The notes under the pieces are model-generated. The model was not told the DNA's origin. It ran no database searches and saw nothing but the letters and a program-made list of their open reading frames with translations. The translations under genes were made by a program, and so were the position numbers. Below, piece by piece: positions 1,612 to 64,000 of a stretch of 64,000 nt of DNA. Numbering within the stretch: the first letter of the stretch is position 1; each line of letters begins with the position of its first letter. This DNA is from Woeseiaceae bacterium (GTDB lineage Bacteria > Pseudomonadota > Gammaproteobacteria > Steroidobacterales > Woeseiaceae): assembly GCA_041746375.1 (NCBI GenBank), contig JBGTHC010000045.1, forward strand, positions 13,204 to 77,203, given 5' to 3'.

Positions 1612-2772
1612 ATGAATCACTCGTACTTATTCACTTCCGAATCGGTATCGGAAGGACATCCGGACAAGATTGCGGACCAGATTTCCGACGCCGTACTTGA
1701 TGCGATACTCGAGCAGGATACAAGAGCGCGGGTCGCCTGCGAAACGCTGGTGAAGACCGGCATGGTCCTTGTTGCCGGGGAAGTAACGACGTCAGCGTGG
1801 GTCGATATCGAGGCGCTCGTGCGCAAGACCGTACTCGACATCGGCTATTCGGACTCGACCATGGGCTTCGATGGCGCTTCGTGCGCGGTGATCAACGCCC
1901 TGGGCAAGCAGTCGCCGGATATCGCCCGTGGCGTGGATCGCGATGAGCTGGAAAATCAGGGTGCCGGTGATCAGGGGCTCATGTTCGGGTACGCCACCAA
2001 CGAGACGAGCGTACTGATGCCCGCGCCGATCACCTATGCCCACCAGCTGGTAAAGCGCCAGGCCGAAGTCCGGAAATCGGGCAAACTGCCGTGGCTGCGC
2101 CCGGACGCCAAGAGCCAGGTGACTTTTGTTTACGAGAACCACAAACCGGTCGGCATCGATGCCGTGGTCCTTTCTTCGCAGCATCATGCCGACGTCTCCA
2201 TGAATGACCTGCGGGACGGCATCATGGAGGAAGTCATCAAGCCGGTGTTACCGGCCGAATGGATCGGCAAACACACCCGGTACCACATTAACCCGACCGG
2301 TCGCTTCGAGATCGGCGGCCCGATGGGCGATTGCGGCCTTACCGGGCGCAAGATCATCGTCGATACCTACGGCGGCTCTGCACGCCACGGGGGCGGCGCA
2401 TTTTCCGGCAAGGACCCGTCCAAGGTCGATCGCTCAGCAGCCTATGCCTGTCGTTACGTGGCCAAAAACATCGTCGCGGCAGGACTCGCGGACCGCTGCG
2501 AGATTCAGGTTTCTTATGCCATCGGCGTAGCCGAACCCACATCGATCAGTGTCCAGACGTTCGGCACGGGCAAGATCAGCGAAGAGCGCCTGACGGACCT
2601 GATCCGCGAGAATTTCGATTTGCGTCCCTATGGCATTCTGAGAATGCTGGATCTCATTCGACCCATTTACCGGCCAACCGCCGCGTACGGTCATTTCGGT
2701 CGCGAGGATATCGATCTGAGCTGGGAGAGAACCGATAAGGCAGAGGTACTGCGAGTTGACGCTGCTGCATGA
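1612..2772 (+). CDS. metK: S-adenosylmethionine synthetase
   Basis: Track ORF 1531..2772. The conserved start is the internal ATG at 1612 ([26 protein letters not shown]). GHPDK and [16 protein letters not shown] motifs are present. Confidence 0.95.
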
Positions 2773-55229: not shown

Positions 55230-57861
55230 CCAGCCATTCGGCGATCAGGCGTTTTTCTGCAGGCGACAAATAGCCGTCATGGCTCTGGCCCGCATCGAAA
55301 CGATCAAAAAATCGACCGGACGCGATAGCGCCGGCGACACTCATTGAAGGGTTAACAGTAACGGTGGCAAAGATCGGATCTCCCGTATCCGGATCGGTGC
55401 CAACCTGCACCAGTACGTCCTGCAGCGCGCCCATGTTGAGTTCCTGTTCGTTATCCGGGAACAGCAGCTCACGATACGAATTGAAATGTTCCGCCTGGTC
55501 GGCCGATGGTCCGTCGGACAAATCCAGCTGTGACGCCGGTACTCGCACCTGCATCTGGTCGTCCACCGGGCTATGGCAGTTGACGCAGTCATTGGTAACA
55601 GGATTACCCATCCCGTCCAGCACCGGATTCATATCGTCGTCCAGCACGGGTCGTGAAGCCGACCATAATGGATGAATATGCGTCTCGTAATTGATGACGA
55701 TGCGGCAGGTTGAGGACCACTGTTGCATGCAATTGACGTTGGTCGGAGGCGCGGTGGTCAGTGCCGCGTAGGCGTAGGCAAAGCTCTCATCCCTTGGCCG
55801 ACCCGCAGCGACCTCATCGGTCCACACGTCCTCAAACACGATATCGACCGATGGATCGATTGATGCGCAGGTCGTATCGTCGCAACTGATGCGTGCGCGA
55901 ACTTCGGCCATCGTTTCACCTATCTCGCCGACAAACAGCGCCGGATCGGTATTCGGGAACTCAACGCCTGCCATTGCGGCACCCGCCCAGGCAGACTCGA
56001 ACGCGTCGCCACGGCCATGGGACAGACCGCTTTGGGCTTCGTGGCAGCCGTTGCACTGCAGCAGTTGGCCCGCCCGAACCTGTAACCAGTTCTGGTGTCG
56101 TTGCGTTATGCGGCGGCCATTGCTGTCTAGCACACTGACAGCCAGTGCCACATTGGCCGGCACCTTGACCATAACCGAACCGTCCGGTTCGATCGGCGCA
56201 TAACCGATGATCTCTTTCATGCCCTGCTGTGTGCTGCGACCGAAAGCGGTATTGTCCAGATCAACGATTTCTTCATCGGGAATCGACACTGCCTTGACAA
56301 TGCGCAAGAACCTGGCCGGCCTCTGATCCGCCGTGGTCTGCCCCGGATCGGCCAGCGCCTCGATATCGGCCACAGCCCCGCCGTCAAAATCGTAGACACT
56401 GCGGATATTGATCACACCTGCGCCTTCGGCAACAAGATTTGGGTCGGCGAGGAAATTATCAGCGCCATCCAGTATGACCGGAGGAATCGGCCTGGGGTCG
56501 GCAGAAACCACTTCCGTGAACATAAATCCTTCGACGGGCGGCACAACCGGCAGCTGGGTATCGTCTCGCGGGTCGTAAATCCAGATGCCATAAATCGGCG
56601 GCGATTCCTCAACCTGCGGATCGGCGAGTCGCTCGTCCGTGCACGGCACGTTAAGCGTGTCCTCGACGACACGACACTGGCTCCAGCTCACCAGCATCCT
56701 GCCGGTGCCATCCTGGATCGGGAACACGGAACGGTAACGCCCGCCACGAGACGGTACACCGGCTTCCGTGGAAACCTCGTTGACCGTGGCAGCTTCCTGT
56801 GCCGGCCCGGTCAGTCCGGCGTTGTCCTTGTTGGCTTGCACATTTTCCAGATATGCCGGTACATCGATGACAGTCAGGTCGCCGCCACCGTTCGTATCAG
56901 TATATGGCCGCGTTAGCGCCAGCACGCGTCCATCTTCGAGTTCGCGCGGCTGCAGGAACTGAATTGTCTCGCCATTCGTACCGGTGTCGTGGCTGTTCTG
57001 GCCATAAAGCAATTCAAGATTCGAACCGTCCGGGTTCATCCGATAGAGATTCACGGCATCGTTTACGCCCATGTGATCCCAGCGGCTAAATACGACTCTG
57101 CCGTCCGCCAGGACCGACGGATCGAAGTCGTGGCTTTGGTTATACGAGACCTGCTCGATGTTCGAGCCACCGGCATCCATGGCATGCAAGACGAAGGCCG
57201 GTTCATTCTGGTCCTCGTCCATAGCGGCGAACTGCGGCTTGCCTTCATCCAGCAGTATCGCGCTCGACCGCACCTGGCGCGTCGACGAAAAAATTATGCG
57301 GCCATCCGGCAGATAGTGAGGCGCAATATCGTGCCCGATTTCAGCGGTCAGGTTGGATGCAATGACGCGACGCAGTGTTTCTGATTCGAATTCGTATTCC
57401 CAGATGTTCCAGGTCGGCTGGTCTTCATCGTCAAGGTCCAGATTCTCGATTGCCGGGCCTCGCATGGCGAAAAGCAGTTTGCTGCCGTCAAATGCGATCT
57501 CGACATCTCTTACGTCACCAAGTCCGTTCGTAACGCTTTCAGTAATGTTGACGTCCAGTGCACTGGGGGACGCCCGGTCACGGAAAAACAGGTCTGCGCC
57601 GATATTGAATGTAATGAGCTCCCGCAGGTCGGTTTGCTCCGTCATGCCCAGGTCATCGACCGGCAAAGGCGCCCTGATGTAAGCGATCGGGAAATCAATG
57701 ACGACCGGGTCCGTATCCTGCCCTGTGCCGATGCTGACGCCATCACCGCTTCCACCGCAGCCGGCCAGCCCAAGCATAGCCGACAGCAATAGCGCGCCCT
57801 GCGCTACCGCGTTCCGTGTTTCAGCACCATTGCATTGCGACGCCGTGTTCATAAATGCCAC
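55180..57861 (-). CDS. lipoprotein with TolB-like beta-propeller, HzsA-like middle region and two c-type haem sites
   Basis: 893 aa; GTG 57861 or ATG 57852. Lipobox LAGC and repeated propeller blades (FDGSKLLFAMRG, LPDGRIIFSSTR, LADGRVVFSRWDH, NPDGSNLELLYG, LEDGRVLALTR). ...IEPDGSVMVKVPANVALAVSVLDSNGRRITQRHQNWLQVRAGQLLQCNGCHE is followed by a second CxxCH (CVNCH). Confidence 0.75.
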   Translation of the reverse strand: MAFMNTASQCNGAETRNAVAQGALLLSAMLGLAGCGGSGDGVSIGTGQDTDPVVIDFPIAYIRAPLPVDDLGMTEQTDLRELITFNIGADLFFRDRASPSALDVNITESVTNGLGDVRDVEIAFDGSKLLFAMRGPAIENLDLDDEDQPTWNIWEYEFESETLRRVIASNLTAEIGHDIAPHYLPDGRIIFSSTRQVRSSAILLDEGKPQFAAMDEDQNEPAFVLHAMDAGGSNIEQVSYNQSHDFDPSVLADGRVVFSRWDHMGVNDAVNLYRMNPDGSNLELLYGQNSHDTGTNGETIQFLQPRELEDGRVLALTRPYTDTNGGGDLTVIDVPAYLENVQANKDNAGLTGPAQEAATVNEVSTEAGVPSRGGRYRSVFPIQDGTGRMLVSWSQCRVVEDTLNVPCTDERLADPQVEESPPIYGIWIYDPRDDTQLPVVPPVEGFMFTEVVSADPRPIPPVILDGADNFLADPNLVAEGAGVINIRSVYDFDGGAVADIEALADPGQTTADQRPARFLRIVKAVSIPDEEIVDLDNTAFGRSTQQGMKEIIGYAPIEPDGSVMVKVPANVALAVSVLDSNGRRITQRHQNWLQVRAGQLLQCNGCHEAQSGLSHGRGDAFESAWAGAAMAGVEFPNTDPALFVGEIGETMAEVRARISCDDTTCASIDPSVDIVFEDVWTDEVAAGRPRDESFAYAYAALTTAPPTNVNCMQQWSSTCRIVINYETHIHPLWSASRPVLDDDMNPVLDGMGNPVTNDCVNCHSPVDDQMQVRVPASQLDLSDGPSADQAEHFNSYRELLFPDNEQELNMGALQDVLVQVGTDPDTGDPIFATVTVNPSMSVAGAIASGRFFDRFDAGQSHDGYLSPAEKRLIAEWLDVGAQYYNNPFDVPIN

Positions 57862-57897
57862 CTTCGATACCTGATGTAATGATTTGTGCGCGCGATT

Positions 57898-57915
57898 CGC
57901 ACGAACTTGCGTGCG
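57898..57915. promoter_or_regulatory. 18-bp palindrome at the 5' end of the minus-strand operon
   Basis: CGCACG-AACTTG-CGTGCG, perfect 6-bp arms. It lies 37 bp upstream of the GTG of the propeller-haem gene and at the predicted transcription start of the candidate sigma-54 promoter. Confidence 0.3.
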
Positions 57916-57922
57916 TAGCTCT

Positions 57923-57939
57923 ATGCAATATTCAGACCA
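57923..57939 (-). promoter_or_regulatory. candidate sigma-54 promoter for the minus-strand operon
   Basis: The minus strand reads TGGTCTGAATATTGCAT. The invariant GG and GC dinucleotides have the correct 12-nt register of TGGCACG-N4-TTGCW, but the -24 element is imperfect. Confidence 0.3.
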
Positions 57940-58255
57940 TTCCTATTTCGTCGGAAACGATCGAACGGAGCAAAGTAAAATCACCGTCAGGCGGACCGCC
58001 ATAGTGGACGCGAAGCACCCCCTGTACCGTTAACGCGATCACAAAGATCTGCGAGGGCCTCACGCCGGAATCTGTGTTCTGCCGCTGTTACGGTTACCTT
58101 AGCTTCCGATCCGCAATCAGCAAGTGCGCTCTGCGGCGCATTGCACGAACGATAAAGCGCGGACGTTGTATCCCGTTTCTCTGTTGCCGCAATCGCACCA
58201 TCACAGTAGCTGCCGCGGTTTCAATGTTGTTTTGCCGCGAATCCTTGTCGTGAAC

Positions 58256-58288
58256 GGACACTGTTGTCGGTGTGCGGCGACAGTCTCC
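58256..58288. promoter_or_regulatory. 33-bp imperfect palindrome, candidate enhancer-binding-protein site
   Basis: GGACACTGT-15 nt-ACAGTCTCC, 8 of 9 arm positions complementary. Its centre is about 180 bp upstream of the plus-strand -24 element, and an AT-rich stretch (about 58387..58425) lies between them. Confidence 0.3.
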
Positions 58289-58450
58289 GGGCGTTGTGAA
58301 TCAGCGGCTTAGACCAGCGTTTGACTTTGTCTTGTGCGGAACGAACGACAATGGCTTGACATATCGTTGCGCGCGCCGGGACGTCGATAATTTTTGTAAT
58401 CGCCTGTTTCCTAACATTTAAATAGCAGCAAGTTGGGCAACGCCGCACAT

Positions 58451-58466
58451 TGGCACAGGCCTTGCT
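58451..58466 (+). promoter_or_regulatory. sigma-54 (RpoN) promoter for the plus-strand haem/LamG/Tat operon
   Basis: TGGCACAGGCCTTGCT, that is TGGCAC-N5-TTGC, an essentially consensus -24/-12 element. The predicted start is near 58477. Confidence 0.6.
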
Positions 58467-58476
58467 ATGTATACCT

Positions 58477-58871
58477 CAGCTAGACAGTTACGGAGTAAGG
58501 CGCGAGTTCGAGAAAGTGTCGCTAAACAGGTGGAGTGTGAATGCATTCACGGCCTGATTACGACGATCAGGGCATAGTCTTTTCTGGAACGTCCGCCTGT
58601 TCGTTCGGCAATTTGTGCGTCGTTAAGACGCGGCAAACCTTAAGGACTTCTGAAAAGGGCAAGGCTTCCGTCAGCAGAACCGACGGTGGCCACGCAAAGC
58701 AACCGATCCGGAAAGTAGCCTTACCGCTACGTTCACGCGACAGCGGGGCCGCCAGGAGTACGTGAGTGACAGGGCTTCATCTCCCTGCTTCGCTCTTGGA
58801 AAAGCCGGAGTCCCTTACCTGTCAGCTGTAGTTCACGATGTTGAGTCGTACTGGTAACGAGCAGGGATGTT
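58477..58871 (+). other. long (about 395 nt) 5' leader with several hairpins; possible cis-regulatory RNA
   Basis: No convincing ORF. Contains the perfect palindrome GTGAATGCATTCAC (58537..58550) and hairpins CCTGAT/ATCAGG, GUAGC/GCUAC and CAGGG/CCCUG. Also carries the sequence islands GGCAAACC, ACGCAAAGC and CAGCGGGG. Confidence 0.35.
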
Positions 58872-60086
58872 ATGAAAGACAGGACGAGGAAAGGTAGTTT
58901 GGGTGCCGGTCATCGCACATTTGTTGCGGGGCTCACTCAATTGTTTGCTGTTGGCATTCTGTCTGCTGCGCTAGCACTGCCTGCAACCGCGGGCCCGAGA
59001 GAGCAGGCGAAGCGCATCCATGATCGACTTGCCGGCGTCCCGCCGTCAGCCTCGGTTCTTGACACTATGGAAGCGGAAGTCGATCCGTTCCGGGCAGGTA
59101 CCGCTCTGGATGCCGCCTTCACGGCGATGGAAAATCCCAATTTCTATAACGTAACCCTGAAGAATTTTGCCGCGCCATGGACCAACCGCGAGCGCAGTGT
59201 TTTCGTTCCGCTGAACGATTACATCGCAACGGTTGTCGGCATGATTCGTGACGACGTGCCGTTCAATACGCTGCTTTCTGCCGATCTCGTTTACGTCGGC
59301 AACGGCAGCCTCGGATTGCCGCCCTACTCCAGCAGCAACAACAATCACTACGCAGAGATGGAGCAACGCCAGATCGACATGATGAGCGAACTTTCGCCGA
59401 CGGCGCAGTCGGCGGTAAGCGGCCTGCCTTCAAATGCGACCGCAGGCGTGATGACCACCCGCGCGGCTGCCGAAGCGTTTTTTGTTGCCGGCACCAACCG
59501 CGCAATGTTTCGCTTCACGTTGCTGAACCACATGTGCAACGACCTGGAGCAGGTTCACGACGTCAATCTGCCGCCGGATCGCATTCGCCAGGATGTCGCC
59601 CGCAGCCCGGGTGGTGACAGTCGACTGTTCCTGAATAATTGCATCGGCTGCCACAACGGCATGGATCCGCTTGCGCAGGCCTTCGCCTACTACAATTTTA
59701 ACGTCGACACAGGCAGCATCGAGTACACACCGGGCCAGGTGCAACCCAAGTATTTCAATAACGAAGACAACTTTCCGTTCGGCTTTCGTACACCGGATGA
59801 CCGCTGGGACAACTACTGGCGCGCCGGGCAGAACCAGTTTCTTGGCTGGGATAACAGCCTGCCCGGCAGTGGCTCCGGCGCGAAATCACTTGGCGACGAA
59901 CTGGGCAACAGTGCCGCGTTCGCCAGCTGCCAGGTCCGCAAAGTTTTTCAAGCCGTTTGTCTGAGACCGCCGCAAGATGCCGCAGATCGGACCCAGGTAG
60001 ATCAGATGGTCATGTCCTTCACGTCCTCAGGCTATCTCATGAAGCAGGTCTTCGCTGAAACTGCCGTCTATTGCATGGGCGACTAG
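58872..60086 (+). CDS. exported monohaem c-type protein, PSCyt/PSD (DUF1588/DUF1585)-like
   Basis: 404 aa. Signal peptide (...ALALPATAGP) and a single CxxCH in NNCIGCHNGMDPLAQAFAYYNF. This resembles the C..CH..MDP.G junction of the planctomycete-type cytochrome/PSD families, recalled from memory. Confidence 0.6.
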   Translation: MKDRTRKGSLGAGHRTFVAGLTQLFAVGILSAALALPATAGPREQAKRIHDRLAGVPPSASVLDTMEAEVDPFRAGTALDAAFTAMENPNFYNVTLKNFAAPWTNRERSVFVPLNDYIATVVGMIRDDVPFNTLLSADLVYVGNGSLGLPPYSSSNNNHYAEMEQRQIDMMSELSPTAQSAVSGLPSNATAGVMTTRAAAEAFFVAGTNRAMFRFTLLNHMCNDLEQVHDVNLPPDRIRQDVARSPGGDSRLFLNNCIGCHNGMDPLAQAFAYYNFNVDTGSIEYTPGQVQPKYFNNEDNFPFGFRTPDDRWDNYWRAGQNQFLGWDNSLPGSGSGAKSLGDELGNSAAFASCQVRKVFQAVCLRPPQDAADRTQVDQMVMSFTSSGYLMKQVFAETAVYCMGD

Positions 60087-60090
60087 GAAG

Positions 60091-62610
60091 ATGGCGTCGA
60101 TGATTCGTACAAAAGGAACTGTTATGACCGACCTCATCGAGAGTGGTCGCAAAGGTGTAATACGCGCAGGCCTGGCCGGTGCATTGTGCATTGCGTTGCT
60201 CGGCGGCTGCGGCGGCGGCGCACAGACGACGGACAACCCTGTAACAGGCGTGACGCCTCCGTCATCCTATTCAGGTCCACCGCCGGCTACCGACGACGTG
60301 CAATCGTTCAAATTGAACGTTTGGGACAACATCCAGGCCAGCAATCGTTGCGGCGGCTGCCACAACGACTCGACCAGCCAAACGCCGATGTTTGCCCGCC
60401 ACGATGACATCAATCTTGCATACGAGGCTGCCAACACGGTTGCCAACCTGTCGCAACCGTCGGACTCCAGGCTGGTTTCCAAGGTCGGCACCGGCCACAA
60501 CTGCTGGTTGAGCGACAGTCAGGCTTGCGCGGATATCATGACTACGTGGATCGAAGGCTGGGCCGGCGATGCGGCCGGCGGCGGACGCCAGATCGTGCTT
60601 GAACCACCGGTTGCGAGCGCTCCAGGATCCAGCAAGAGCTATGCAAATGCCACGGAAGCCAATTTCGCGGCACTGGTCCATGGCCCGCTACTGACGACCT
60701 ATTGCGCCGGATGCCATACCTCGCAGTCGCCGAATTCACAACAACCCTATTTTGCTGAAGATGATGTATCCGTCGCTTACGACGCGGCGAAGCCGAGGAT
60801 GGCCCTCGATTCACCGGTTGATTCGCGATTCGTCGTGCGCCTTGGCAGCGAATTCCATAACTGCTGGGACGACAGCTGCTCGGCTTCTGCTGCGGAAATG
60901 CAGGCAGCAATCCAGGCTTTCGCGGACACCGTTCCGTTGACGGAAATCAATCCTTTGCTGGTCAACAGCAACGCCCTGCGTATAGTCGATGGCGTCGTCG
61001 CGTCGGGCGGCAATCGCTATGAAGGCGCGCAGATCGCCTTGTGGGAGTTCAAAACCGGCCAGGGCGCGACCGCGTTCGATACCAGCGGTGTTGAACCGGC
61101 AATAAATCTGACGCTGTCAGGCAACTATGAATGGTTCGGCGGCTGGGGCGTTACCATCAACGACGGCAAAGCACAGGGCACGACGTCCGCCAGCAAGAAG
61201 CTGCATGACCTCATTCGCGGCACTGGTGAGTACACGATCGAAGCGTGGGTGGTGCCGGCGAATGTATCCCAGGAGATGGCACGCATAGTCAGTTATTCCG
61301 CTGGCGACGACGCACGCAACTTTACCTTGCAGCAGACTCTGTACGACTACAATTTCCTGCATCGCAGCACCGAGACGAGCCTCAACGGTGATCCCGCACT
61401 ATCGACGCCCTCTGCTGCAGAGGTCCTGCAGGCTGCACTGCAACATGTGGTTGCAACTTACAGTCCCGTCGATGGACGCAGGATCTATGTCAACGGCGAG
61501 CTTGTCACGCAGGCAGACCCGGTAGCCGGCGGCTCCCTGGTCGACTGGCAGGACACGTTTGCCTTCGTCCTCGGCAACGAAGTTTCGAGCTCGGGCCTGT
61601 GGCAAGGTACCTTCCGCCTGGTTGCGATGCATAACCGCGTCCTGACTCCCGAACAGATCCTGCAGAATTTCGATGTTGGTGTCGGTGAGAAGTTCTACCT
61701 GTTGTTCGGCATCGAAGACATTATCAACGTGCCGACCGCTTACATCCTTTTCGAGGTCGCGCAGTTCGACAGCTACGGCTATCTGTTTACGCAGCCGCAC
61801 TTCATAACCCTCGACTCGACACAACAGCCTGACGGTATACCGTTGCAGGGCTTGCGCATCGGCATCAACGGAGCGGAAGCGCCGGTGGGTCAGTCCTATG
61901 CCAATATGGACCAGACCCTCAGTTATTCCCAGTTTGGTGAACTCGGTCAGCCGCTCGCTGAAATCGGCGCTGTGGTACCGCTGGAGAAGGGTCCGCAGGA
62001 TGACGAGTTCTTCCTGACCTTTGACTTGCTGGGACAACAGACCTACGCACGCACCGACAATCCGCCGCTGGTCATCACCCCAACCGATCTGCCACCGGCG
62101 TCCCGTTTTGGAGTAAGGACCTTCGACGAGATCAATGCCACCATGGCGGCGGTGACCACGGTCGATCCGGCACAGACAGACGTCGACCTCACCTACCAGA
62201 GTCTGCGCCAGTCATTGCCGACTATTGAAAGCCCGGAGGCATTCCTCGCTTCTCACCAGGTCGCGATCGCACAGCTCGCCATCGAATACTGCAACGTGCT
62301 GATCGAGGATCCGGCGATGGCAGCCGCGTACTTTCCCGGCTTTGATTTCAACCAGGCAGCCGCTGCCGCATTTGCCGGGGCCAATCGCGATCTGATTCTC
62401 GAACCACTGATCGACAGGATGATGGGCTTTGGCATCCAGACACAACCGGACTACGCCGATGTGCGCAATGAACTCGGCTACGTCACGTCCGACGGCACGC
62501 GGCCCGACAACCTGATAGATCGCCTTTTGAGCAGCGGCGCGGCAACGCGATCGATCTCCAAAGGTGTATGCGCAGCCGTTCTCGGCAGCGCTGTGACACT
62601 CGTACAGTAG
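60091..62610 (+). CDS. lipoprotein with two tandem monohaem modules, a LamG (concanavalin-like) domain and a helical C-terminal region
   Basis: 839 aa; the alternative ATG 60124 has a better ribosome-binding site. Lipobox LLGGC, with haem sites CGGCH and CAGCH in two similar modules each ending ...HNCW. The LamG pattern is EYTIEAWVVPANVS...HVVATYSPVDGRRIYVNGELV...FVLGNE...GTFRLVAMHNRVLTPEQI. Confidence 0.75.
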   Translation: MASMIRTKGTVMTDLIESGRKGVIRAGLAGALCIALLGGCGGGAQTTDNPVTGVTPPSSYSGPPPATDDVQSFKLNVWDNIQASNRCGGCHNDSTSQTPMFARHDDINLAYEAANTVANLSQPSDSRLVSKVGTGHNCWLSDSQACADIMTTWIEGWAGDAAGGGRQIVLEPPVASAPGSSKSYANATEANFAALVHGPLLTTYCAGCHTSQSPNSQQPYFAEDDVSVAYDAAKPRMALDSPVDSRFVVRLGSEFHNCWDDSCSASAAEMQAAIQAFADTVPLTEINPLLVNSNALRIVDGVVASGGNRYEGAQIALWEFKTGQGATAFDTSGVEPAINLTLSGNYEWFGGWGVTINDGKAQGTTSASKKLHDLIRGTGEYTIEAWVVPANVSQEMARIVSYSAGDDARNFTLQQTLYDYNFLHRSTETSLNGDPALSTPSAAEVLQAALQHVVATYSPVDGRRIYVNGELVTQADPVAGGSLVDWQDTFAFVLGNEVSSSGLWQGTFRLVAMHNRVLTPEQILQNFDVGVGEKFYLLFGIEDIINVPTAYILFEVAQFDSYGYLFTQPHFITLDSTQQPDGIPLQGLRIGINGAEAPVGQSYANMDQTLSYSQFGELGQPLAEIGAVVPLEKGPQDDEFFLTFDLLGQQTYARTDNPPLVITPTDLPPASRFGVRTFDEINATMAAVTTVDPAQTDVDLTYQSLRQSLPTIESPEAFLASHQVAIAQLAIEYCNVLIEDPAMAAAYFPGFDFNQAAAAAFAGANRDLILEPLIDRMMGFGIQTQPDYADVRNELGYVTSDGTRPDNLIDRLLSSGAATRSISKGVCAAVLGSAVTLVQ

Positions 62611-62642
62611 TTCGATTACGCAAACGGAATGAGGCAAGAGTA

Positions 62643-64000
62643 ATGTCCAGGAAAAGCAAACGTGCCCGGTTCGACTCACCGCAACGCCACGGGGACCATC
62701 CGCGGCCGGTGACCCGGCGTCAATTCGTCGCACAGGGATTTCTGGGCGGCTCGGCTTTCCTGGCAGGCGGCGGCGTAATGAGCCTGTTCACGAACCCGCG
62801 CCAGGCATTCGCGGAGCTTTCGGGCGATCTGCAGCCCCTGCTCAGCAATCCGTGCAACGTCGCAACGGAAGGAGCCGGCAAGATCCCGTTTATCTGTTTT
62901 GACCTGTCGGGCGGAGCCAGCATTGCCGGTTCCAATGTCCTGGTCGGCAAGGAAGGCGGGCAACTCGATTTCCTGGGCACGGCCGGCTACCAGAAACTGG
63001 GCTTGCCCGGCGATATGGTGCCGAGCTTGAACGACCCGATCTCCGGCCTGCCCTTCACCAATAGCGATTTCGGGCTGGCGTTTCACTCCGACAGCGCCTT
63101 CCTGCGCGGCATACTGCGCAGCATGGCGCCGACTCGCGCGGCCAACCTGAACGGCGCCGTCATCCCGGCACGTTCGGAGAATGACACCGGCAACAATCCG
63201 CACAATCCGTTGTACGGCATTGCGACCGCGGGTGCGGACGGCTCGATCGTCACGTTGGCCGGCTCCGAGAATACGGATTCAGGCGGCAATTCAATGATTC
63301 CGTCGATGATGATGAACCCGGAGTTGCGGCCAACCAAGGTGGACCAGCCGCGGGATGTGACGGGCCTGGTGGATACCGGCGACCTGGTGGGGATTCTTCA
63401 GCCAGAAGAAGCCACCGCGGTCCTGGAATCCATATACCGCATCAGCGACCGCAAGATGAGTGTTGGCGAAACCGGCCAGACGATAACGTCCGACGACGTC
63501 GTCAAGGACATGGTGCGCTGCGGCTACCTGAAATCGGCCGACATTGCCGACCGCTTTGGCGGCGTCCCGCTCGATCCAAGCGAAGATCCGATGATTGTCG
63601 GACCGGGCGGCATATTTACCGAAGCCGAGTTCAATGCCAACGATACCGACGGTCGCGAATTCCGCAAAACGGCATCCGTCATGAAACTGGTGATGAACGG
63701 TTTCGCCGGTGCCGCCTGCATTGAAATGGGCGGCTACGACTACCACGGCGGTCAGCGACGTGAAGGCGAAGTGAAGGACGAACGTGCCGGGCGCTGCATG
63801 GGCGCCTGCCTGGAGTATGCCGCACGCATCGGTGTACCCCTGATGATGTACGTCTTCAGCGACGGATCGCTGTCCAGCAATGGTGTCATCGACAACTCGC
63901 CGGAAGGTCGCGGCAAGGGTGAATGGGTCAGTGACGATTCGTCGACGGCCGCGTCGTTTTTCCTGGTCTACAACCCCAACGGTCGGCCGGCGCTGCGCGG
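62643..64000 (+). CDS. Tat-exported DUF1501-like protein (alkaline-phosphatase/sulfatase superfamily-like), 3' end beyond the window
   Basis: Absent from the ORF track because it is open at the right edge. Manual translation from ATG 62643 gives MSRKSKRARFDSPQRHGDHPRPVTRRQFVAQGFLGGSAFLAGGG (twin-arginine motif) ...FICFDLSGGAS...IEMGGYDYHGG..., compared with the GGWDTH signature of DUF1501. The frame stays open for 452 codons. Confidence 0.65.
   Translation, partial: MSRKSKRARFDSPQRHGDHPRPVTRRQFVAQGFLGGSAFLAGGGVMSLFTNPRQAFAELSGDLQPLLSNPCNVATEGAGKIPFICFDLSGGASIAGSNVLVGKEGGQLDFLGTAGYQKLGLPGDMVPSLNDPISGLPFTNSDFGLAFHSDSAFLRGILRSMAPTRAANLNGAVIPARSENDTGNNPHNPLYGIATAGADGSIVTLAGSENTDSGGNSMIPSMMMNPELRPTKVDQPRDVTGLVDTGDLVGILQPEEATAVLESIYRISDRKMSVGETGQTITSDDVVKDMVRCGYLKSADIADRFGGVPLDPSEDPMIVGPGGIFTEAEFNANDTDGREFRKTASVMKLVMNGFAGAACIEMGGYDYHGGQRREGEVKDERAGRCMGACLEYAARIGVPLMMYVFSDGSLSSNGVIDNSPEGRGKGEWVSDDSSTAASFFLVYNPNGRPALR

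Follow-up and report, generated by a model that had tools for sequence, protein, structure and literature searches.

What controls the two divergent operons that flank the longest gap in a 64,000-nucleotide stretch of Woeseiaceae DNA? The stretch, called the window below (contig JBGTHC010000045.1 of assembly GCA_041746375.1, positions 13,204 to 77,203; G000:C45:13204-77203 in our numbering), comes from a genome that is 75% complete and belongs to a family that is among the commonest marine-sediment bacteria. The gap between the divergent genes (57862-58871) measures 1010 bp and, by a crude filter for open reading frames (ORFs), exceeds every other ORF-free stretch in the window, the second-longest measuring 484 bp by the same filter. 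We think it probable that the gap is a composite control region, conserved across the family, for two divergent operons encoding secreted c-type haem proteins. It likely joins, judging from its sequence, a sigma-54 promoter with activator and integration host factor (IHF) sites, two promoters of the type used by the cAMP receptor protein (CRP), and a divergent aptamer of the cyclic diguanosine monophosphate (c-di-GMP) type, each an element of a known kind. Our observations concern motifs, their conservation and spacing, RNA covariation, and the presence in the genome of genes for RpoN, IHF, CRP and enhancer-binding proteins. What is noteworthy is the combination of three inputs, the depth of its conservation, and an aptamer that routine annotation misses.

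We compared the gap at three depths. Eight genomes from three genera yielded the orthologous gap by DNA similarity, a wider comparison took in 25 loci from about nine genera of the Woeseiaceae, and family-wide pattern searches covered 267 genomes in 16 genera, with the reversed pattern as control. An earlier note on this DNA had pointed to TGGCACAGGCCTTGCT on the plus strand as an almost consensus -24/-12 promoter. The element (P1 promoter) is present and fits TGGCACG-N4-TTGCW at every specified position but one (position 7, A for G), with the 10 nt between GG and GC that the consensus demands. Within the window the exact core TGGCAC-N5-TTGC is found a single time; in the part of the genome not covered by long ORFs, about 6%, it is one of 12 core matches. 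Allowing up to one mismatch, the window holds 7 core matches against 6.0 expected; the motif alone is therefore weakly significant, and the case for it rests on conservation. In the eight-way alignment the flanks are mostly unalignable, yet CTGGCACAG..CTTGCT, and with it the core, is invariant, and the core is kept in 25/25 loci, one with a single mismatch. Footprinting across these loci delineated three conserved blocks upstream of the -24/-12 core, which itself forms the fourth. The pattern TTGACATAT-N82-90-TGGCAY-N5-TTGC, which ties the core to one of these blocks, was found in 139/267 family genomes and 10/16 genera, nearly always once per genome, and never in the reversed control. The genome encodes the cognate factor (rpoN; PF04552, 227.9 bits, contig C196). 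From this pattern of conservation, the plus-strand sigma-54 promoter is very likely real.

The conserved blocks upstream have the look of activator and IHF sites. Closest to the predicted start lies an IHF-like box, YAAnnnnYTG(A/T)T with an AT-rich tail; several relatives fit the IHF consensus perfectly, and the position of AA-N5-TG(A/T)T does not shift among the 25 aligned loci, while most of the 139 stretches matched by the family-wide pattern show it too. Genes for both IHF subunits, ihfA (alpha) and ihfB (beta), are present with scores above the equivalog cut-offs. Further upstream, the proximal enhancer-like site keeps GACA and TTGACATAT invariant in 25/25 loci, always 103-105 bp upstream of TGGCAC. 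We considered TTGACATAT as a sigma-70 -35 element and ruled this out, as nothing is conserved at -10 distance. Counted from the sigma-54 start as predicted, the distal repeats have their centres near -223 and -203. Of 24 aligned orthologous regions, at least 88% retain the TGTC and GACA tetramers of the second repeat, around a spacer that varies; TGTC-N7-GACA, just before it, is the weaker block. The 33-bp palindrome that had been described here is thus borne out in part: direct reading gives TGTC/GACA repeats with near-invariant tetramers, but the repeat is imperfect and a repeat finder was silent on it. The AT-rich bend and enhancer layout claimed for the upstream region are backed by the family-wide footprinting. 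Read from these motifs, candidate enhancer, IHF site and sigma-54 promoter stand in the classical order, and the central claim of the earlier note holds.

The activator had been supposed to be encoded elsewhere, and the gene content agrees. The genome has eight strong matches to the enhancer-binding-protein domain PF00158, none of them on the contig of the window, and in five relatives no enhancer-binding-protein gene lies within 130 kb of the locus on the same contig. The enhancer motif is unique in the 75%-complete genome, except that a second sigma-54 promoter, on contig C17, has a similar TGTC-N10-GACATAAT. That locus (G000:C17:4400-4940; L056 ~1900-2440, minus strand) has a near-identical extended core, CTGGCACAGGACTTGCTATGT, with TGTC-N10-GACATAAT about 230 bp upstream. 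Its promoter is followed by an A-rich stretch of about 200 nt with AAUAAUAA repeats, which ends in two copies of a terminator-like hairpin and gives a weak Rfam match to CrcZ (E = 0.003; at 23 bits the score is far short of the cut-off of 95). The C17 locus may encode a sigma-54-dependent small RNA resembling CrcZ, under the same activator as the control region in the window.

Downstream of the P1 promoter, the plus-strand transcript had been thought to carry a plain leader of about 395 nt. This description is not supported in that form: the leader contains a conserved candidate CRP-type promoter (P2 promoter) and an aptamer of the c-di-GMP-I type. The first of these, TGTGAATGCATTCACG, fits TGTGA-N6-TCACA at 9/10 positions. 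The block that holds it, GTGAATGCATTCAC, looked hairpin-like at first; the pattern over 25 loci is one of fixed half-sites (TGTGA and TCAC, invariant in 25/25) around six variable central bases. A hexamer with A2 and T6 follows the 16-mer at a distance of exactly 21 nt, again in 25/25 loci. Genome-wide, TGTGA-N6-TCAC has 40 strand matches against 15 expected, 22 of which fall in the small part of the genome, about 6%, that long ORFs leave free, and -10-like hexamers over these 40 sites peak sharply at offset 21, which has 10 sites where the other offsets have 0-3. The genome encodes a 217-aa CRP orthologue (270 bits with E. coli CRP) that contains the DNA-recognition-helix motif CSREMAGR. A composite of sigma-54 core, 50-78 nt, CRP site, 23 nt and A-NNN-T was found in 170/267 genomes and 14/16 genera, with no match in the control. 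A simple scan of the control region for sigma-70 promoters and terminators returned no promoter and no plus-strand terminator. Given the class II geometry, with the CRP site centred at -41.5, we propose that a second, shorter transcript begins within the leader near 58585.

A single sigma-54 promoter might also account for the leader. One transcript of 395 nt would then be made, and TGTGA-N6-TCAC would be an operator, roadblock or modulator site for CRP or a relative, or a small RNA hairpin, a reading that we regard as distinctly unlikely. Three of the points in its favour count at the same time against a P2 promoter. The -10 hexamer is weak (CATAGT, and GAGCAT in genus g3); the CRP site lies within the sigma-54 transcript, where it could act as a roadblock or repressor site instead; and GUGA/UCAC could form a small hairpin, being able to pair and retaining G-U pairs through its A-to-G changes. 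That the sigma-54 core and TGTGA-N6-TCAC travel together at 50-78 nt in 170/267 genomes, duplicated copies in genus g9 included, could mean functional coupling. Against these stand the constancy of the hexamer, with A2 and T6 at exactly +21 in every locus, and the recurrence of the same geometry with good hexamers elsewhere in the genome (TATAAT on C41, TATACT on C90, TATAGT on C53); together with the other matches concentrated outside ORFs, these sites outline a CRP regulon of this uncultured lineage. A copy on the minus strand, described below, has the same geometry and cannot form a hairpin. Moreover, the spacing between sigma-54 core and CRP site varies from 68 to 89 nt among the aligned loci, as expected of independent modules. 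We therefore favour tandem promoters, with P2 as a candidate class II CRP-dependent sigma-70 promoter.

The tandem arrangement is found beyond this locus. In genus g9, most of 19 genomes have two, and some three, cassettes of sigma-54 core, CRP site and -10 hexamer (for example at G024:C1:402350 and G024:C7:38610), and the TTGACATAT box occurs in none of the g9 genomes. The g9 copies without this box suggest that the tandem cassette was duplicated and rewired to other upstream sites, and it may be a reusable regulatory unit.

The second element of the leader is the aptamer. Rfam models of the c-di-GMP-I clan match 58649-58757 on the plus strand with 31.8 bits for RF03167 (E = 4e-05) and 27.3 bits for RF01051 (E = 0.003). 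The same genome has five canonical c-di-GMP-I riboswitches elsewhere, at 71-88 bits. Compared with these, the window aptamer retains CUG...CAGG of helix P1, GGGCAA, ACGCAAAGC and AGCGGGGCCGCC. Its helix P2 is a stem of about 10 bp with the 9-nt loop AGCAGAACC in place of a GAAA cap, and its helix P3 has an extra hairpin of about 30 nt; the GAAA tetraloop is present in the genus g3 orthologues and in the canonical copies of the genome. We take G58658, A58696 and C58752 to be the counterparts of the ligand-contacting G20, A47 and C92 of the Vc2 riboswitch, following its structures and numbering. The GGC (A47G) variant was ruled out as the identity of the element, as A and not G follows ACGC, though the RF03167 model scores higher.

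A covariance model built from four sequences and searched against 151 family genomes found the element in 98 of them, many matches being canonical copies elsewhere in the genome. At the studied locus there are 21 matches, from about nine genera. They lie some 175-200 nt downstream of the sigma-54 core, and upstream of the orthologue of the first plus-strand gene wherever the contig extends far enough. The equivalents of G58658, A58696 and C58752 are kept in all 21. In the alignment of these aptamers, which was fitted to the covariance model, 88.6% of cells are paired, against 28-49% with the partners slid; 7/9 pairs of helix P2 have compensatory changes, and helix P1 and the core of helix P3 are invariant. 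A plain MAFFT alignment gives three double changes in helix P2 between our genome and one relative (G000 vs G020). By analogy, the expected ligand is c-di-GMP rather than cyclic AMP-GMP (c-AMP-GMP), because 21/21 aptamers retain the counterparts of G20, A47 and C92; this expectation draws on the Vc2 structures and on PMC7266159.

Could the window aptamer be a decaying relic that no longer binds a ligand, leaving regulation purely transcriptional? Several features weigh on that side. The Rfam scores are below the gathering cut-offs (31.8 vs 59 for RF03167, 27.3 vs 35 for RF01051), the GNRA tetraloop and its receptor are missing from the window aptamer, two pairs in helix P3 are non-standard, and several orthologous leaders, 4/8 of those identified through DNA similarity, have no aptamer. 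In genus g3 (62-66 vs 59) and at locus L031 of genus g28 (38.2 vs 35, RF01051) the aptamer in this position does pass a cut-off. A helix P2 tetraloop that docks into a helix P3 receptor belongs only to type 1 members of the c-di-GMP-I class, and hence does not define it. The absence from half of the similarity-found loci marks the aptamer as a dispensable, optional module. On the other side, the window aptamer has at its core junction exactly the nucleotides found in the genome's canonical copies, and helix P2 and distal helix P3 have compensatory changes, both among the three closest genomes and across genera, which indicates continuing selection on the fold. We consider a relic very improbable and a c-di-GMP-I-type aptamer the better reading. 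If this is right, a real aptamer of this type can score well below the Rfam cut-offs when its peripheral loops grow, and standard annotation would miss it.

Two further observations concern this aptamer class. On contig C48 (G000:C48:16946-19957; L013, L015-L017) four canonical c-di-GMP-I riboswitches (71-88 bits) are grouped in 3 kb, all on one strand, and one of them is preceded, at a distance of about 200 nt, by a sigma-54 core match (TGGCATGCGACTTGC, near C48:17237). The pairing of sigma-54 with a c-di-GMP riboswitch thus appears to recur in the genome. In one relative (G005, L003:2280-2310) a 13-nt insertion just upstream of the aptamer duplicates the 5' strand of helix P1 (..CAGGACTTCTGAGAAGGACTTCTGAAAAGGG..), which gives two alternative partners for that helix.

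How might the aptamer act on the operon? The distance from aptamer to start codon is about 110 nt, and the terminator scan gave no terminator after the aptamer. Without an intrinsic terminator, control would most likely be exerted through translation initiation or Rho-dependent termination. Three possible switching segments lie in this interval. The anti-Shine-Dalgarno segment UCCCUGCUUCG is complementary to CGAGCAGGGA before the start codon, and in an alternative structure from RNAfold GCUCUUGG is complementary to the 3' strand of helix P1, and GGAGUCC to its 5' extension. In the window, the duplex of GCUCUUGG with the helix P1 3' strand reaches -12.4 kcal/mol, compared with -7.2 +/- 1.7 in shuffles. 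At the other end of the leader, A(A/C)GTCCG is found about 12-17 nt after the -10 hexamer of the P2 promoter (window 58585-58650); it is conserved across genera and complementary to the GGACUU extension of helix P1. From this complementarity, the 5' end of the P2-promoter transcript could compete with the formation of helix P1.

The minus-strand side of the gap has a candidate class II CRP-type promoter of its own. Across the 18 loci in which it was found, which span several genera, its 19-nt core shows little or no variation and its hexamer retains A2 and T6; the element was not found in genus g3. It is unique in the genome, and its geometry is that of the P2 promoter and other CRP-type sites. 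Nearer the gene, the earlier note had placed a second sigma-54 promoter, TGGTCTGAATATTGCAT, with the palindrome CGCACG-N6-CGTGCG at its predicted start. Both are present, the first in the correct register, and both are of narrow distribution. All 6 genus-g1 loci preserve TGG(Y)(Y)TG(R)AA(W)(W)TTGCAT, which is not kept in other genera. The palindrome is kept in one close relative (G005), has one mismatch in another (G001), and is absent from more distant orthologous regions.

Two elements are candidates for driving the minus-strand operon. We find it unlikely that the operon is driven by the sigma-54-like motif, mirroring the plus strand. The motif has GG-N10-GC in register, and its TGG and TTGCAT persist in each of the six genus-g1 loci although the flanks there have diverged. 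The motif is missing, however, from other genera that retain the operon and the CRP-type element, its -24 half is poor (TGGTCT), and no conserved upstream activator site was found for it. Moreover, it fits only TGG...TTGCA, for which about 8 matches per window are expected by chance. We prefer the CRP-type promoter, from which the minus-strand operon would mainly be read, the sigma-54-like element being an addition in genus g1 only.

The coordinates of all elements are collected in the table.

Features of the gap between the divergent operons (window coordinates; starts are predicted from the promoter motifs)
Feature	Position	Strand	Details
CGCACG-N6-CGTGCG palindrome	57899..57916	-	read directly; candidate hairpin in the 5' untranslated region (UTR) of the minus-strand gene
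Sigma-54-like motif TGGTCTGAATATTGCAT	57923..57939	-	GG-N10-GC in correct register; weak consensus match
Candidate class II CRP-type promoter	58001..58043	-	TGTGATCGCGTTAACG (58043-58028), 21 nt, CACTAT (58006-58001); predicted start near 57994
Distal enhancer-like repeats	58246..58282	.	TGTC-N7-GACA (58246-58260) and TGTC-N10-GACA (58265-58282)
Proximal enhancer-like site	58333..58364	.	TGTG-N10-GACA (58333-58350), then CTTGACATAT (58355-58364); centre ~-122
IHF-like site TAATCGCCTGTTT	58397..58409	-	reverse complement of WATCARnnnnTTR with one mismatch, then AT-rich tract; centre ~-74
Sigma-54 promoter P1, TGGCACAGGCCTTGCT	58451..58466	+	-24 GG, -12 GC; predicted start near 58477
Candidate class II CRP-dependent sigma-70 promoter P2	58536..58578	+	TGTGAATGCATTCACG (58536-58551), 21 nt, CATAGT (58573-58578); predicted start near 58585
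c-di-GMP-I-type (GEMM-I) aptamer	58646..58759	+	helices P1 58647-58652/58753-58758; P2 58664-58672/58682-58690; P3 58698-58708/58739-58750
Possible switching segments	58782..58813	+	anti-Shine-Dalgarno UCCCUGCUUCG (58782-58792); GCUCUUGG (58792-58799); GGAGUCC (58807-58813)
Translation initiation region, first operon gene	58858..58874	+	CGAGCAGGGA, 4 nt, ATG at 58872

The genes on both sides encode haem proteins. The likely start of the minus-strand gene is an ATG at 57852, after a conserved GAGGT, which would make the true gap about 1019 bp. This gene encodes an 893-aa lipoprotein with a middle domain like that of hydrazine synthase alpha, PD40 repeats and two CxxCH motifs. On the plus strand, the first gene encodes a 404-aa monohaem protein (one CxxCH), whose close homologues are labelled Woeseia sp. 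or Woeseiaceae; GAGCAGGR followed by ATGAA at its start is kept in the orthologues, those without the aptamer included. The second encodes an 839-aa dihaem protein (two CxxCH) with a LamG domain (Laminin_G_3), and the third a 566-aa protein with a twin-arginine leader and the motif TRRQFVAQGFLG (window 62568-63998; L049:3772-5472), for which Pfam and NCBIfam gave no match at E <= 0.01. The plus-strand haem-protein operon is kept at 70-93% identity in thousands of metagenomic proteins. Two ORFs within the gap, of 74 aa (58541-58765) and 43 aa (58063-57932), were rejected as genes; close relatives have 2-nt and 13-nt indels in them, and they show no codon pattern.

Taken together, these elements suggest a mechanism, of which we infer every binding event, both transcription starts and the ligand from sequence. 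An unlinked enhancer-binding protein would bind the TGTC/TGTG-N10-GACA and GACATAT sites (58246-58364) and drive sigma-54 transcription of the plus-strand operon from the P1 promoter, with IHF bending the DNA and so bringing the activator to the polymerase. CRP-cAMP would open the P2 promoter, and the operon would be read from both promoters in tandem. Both transcripts would carry the aptamer, in which the ligand-contacting nucleotides are kept, the tetraloop and receptor are lost, and helices P2 and P3 are lengthened. Ligand binding would lock helix P1 and thereby decide which of the downstream pairings form. That a Woeseiaceae-wide switch with three inputs (an unlinked sigma-54 activator, CRP-cAMP and a c-di-GMP riboswitch) gates the secreted haem-protein operon as a whole is a tentative proposal.

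Several results weigh against the composite region and the switch built on it. Being drawn from related genomes, the conservation counts are not independent of one another. The enhancer sites fit no activator motif that we can name; TGTC-N10-GACA (equivalent to TGT-N12-ACA) differs from the NifA site, TGT-N10-ACA, and from the NtrC and CbrB sites. The invariance of the minus-strand CRP-type element extends to its spacer, which holds the palindrome CGTTAACG; CRP binding alone leaves this unexplained, so another or an additional factor may bind there. As to the riboswitch, alternative pairing of the helix P1 3' strand beats shuffles in the window and in some g3 loci, not generally. Ligand-dependent accessibility of the Shine-Dalgarno sequence, modelled in 19 loci, had no consistent direction, with a constraint forbidding helix P1 that was possibly ineffective.

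If it exists, the three-input switch would link redox proteins of the periplasm or cell exterior to cyclic-dinucleotide signalling in a lineage other than Geobacter. Its possible inputs hint at when the operon is used: CRP would report the energy or carbon state, c-di-GMP the surface or biofilm state, and the sigma-54 activator another signal. The result is a testable regulatory map of a haem-protein operon, with predicted starts, sites and ligand. Our literature search found no paper that names Woeseia together with riboswitches.

Each part of the region has a known counterpart. The P1 promoter resembles promoters of the Klebsiella nifH and Pseudomonas Pu type: it shares TGGCAC-N5-TTGC with GG and GC 10 nt apart, has an IHF-type site about 75 bp upstream of the predicted start and inverted repeats at about -120 and -200, and occurs in a genome with rpoN, IHF and enhancer-binding-protein genes. 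It differs from them in that its activator gene is unlinked and a second candidate promoter lies 85 bp downstream. That second promoter, P2, is akin to class II promoters of the E. coli galP1 type, sharing TGTGA-N6-TCAC centred 41.5 bp upstream of the presumed start, the lack of a -35 element, a presumed start 7 nt past the -10 hexamer, and a close CRP orthologue in the genome. Unlike galP1, P2 has a weak -10 hexamer, its site lies within a sigma-54 transcription unit, and its start is only predicted.

The aptamer shares with Vc2 of Vibrio cholerae (RF01051) the three-helix junction, with GGGCAA, ACGCAAAGC and AGCGGGGnnGCC in the same order, the equivalents of G20, A47 and C92, and a position in the 5' UTR. 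It differs from Vc2 in lacking the tetraloop and receptor, in its longer helix P2 and extra helix P3 hairpin, and in its sub-cut-off score. At the level of the operon, the nearest parallels are in Geobacter and Shewanella. Geobacter has riboswitches of the GEMM-I class upstream of extracellular cytochrome genes such as pgcA (PMC5732950), with variants that have A at position 20 and sense c-AMP-GMP (PMC7266159), and in Shewanella CRP controls the omcA-mtrCAB genes (PMC4417206). The region described here likewise places cyclic-dinucleotide riboswitch or CRP-type elements at genes for secreted c-type cytochromes, as in Geobacter (PMC5732950) and Shewanella (PMC4417206). Unlike the Geobacter variants it keeps G at position 20, and it serves mono- or dihaem proteins, not multihaem conduits.

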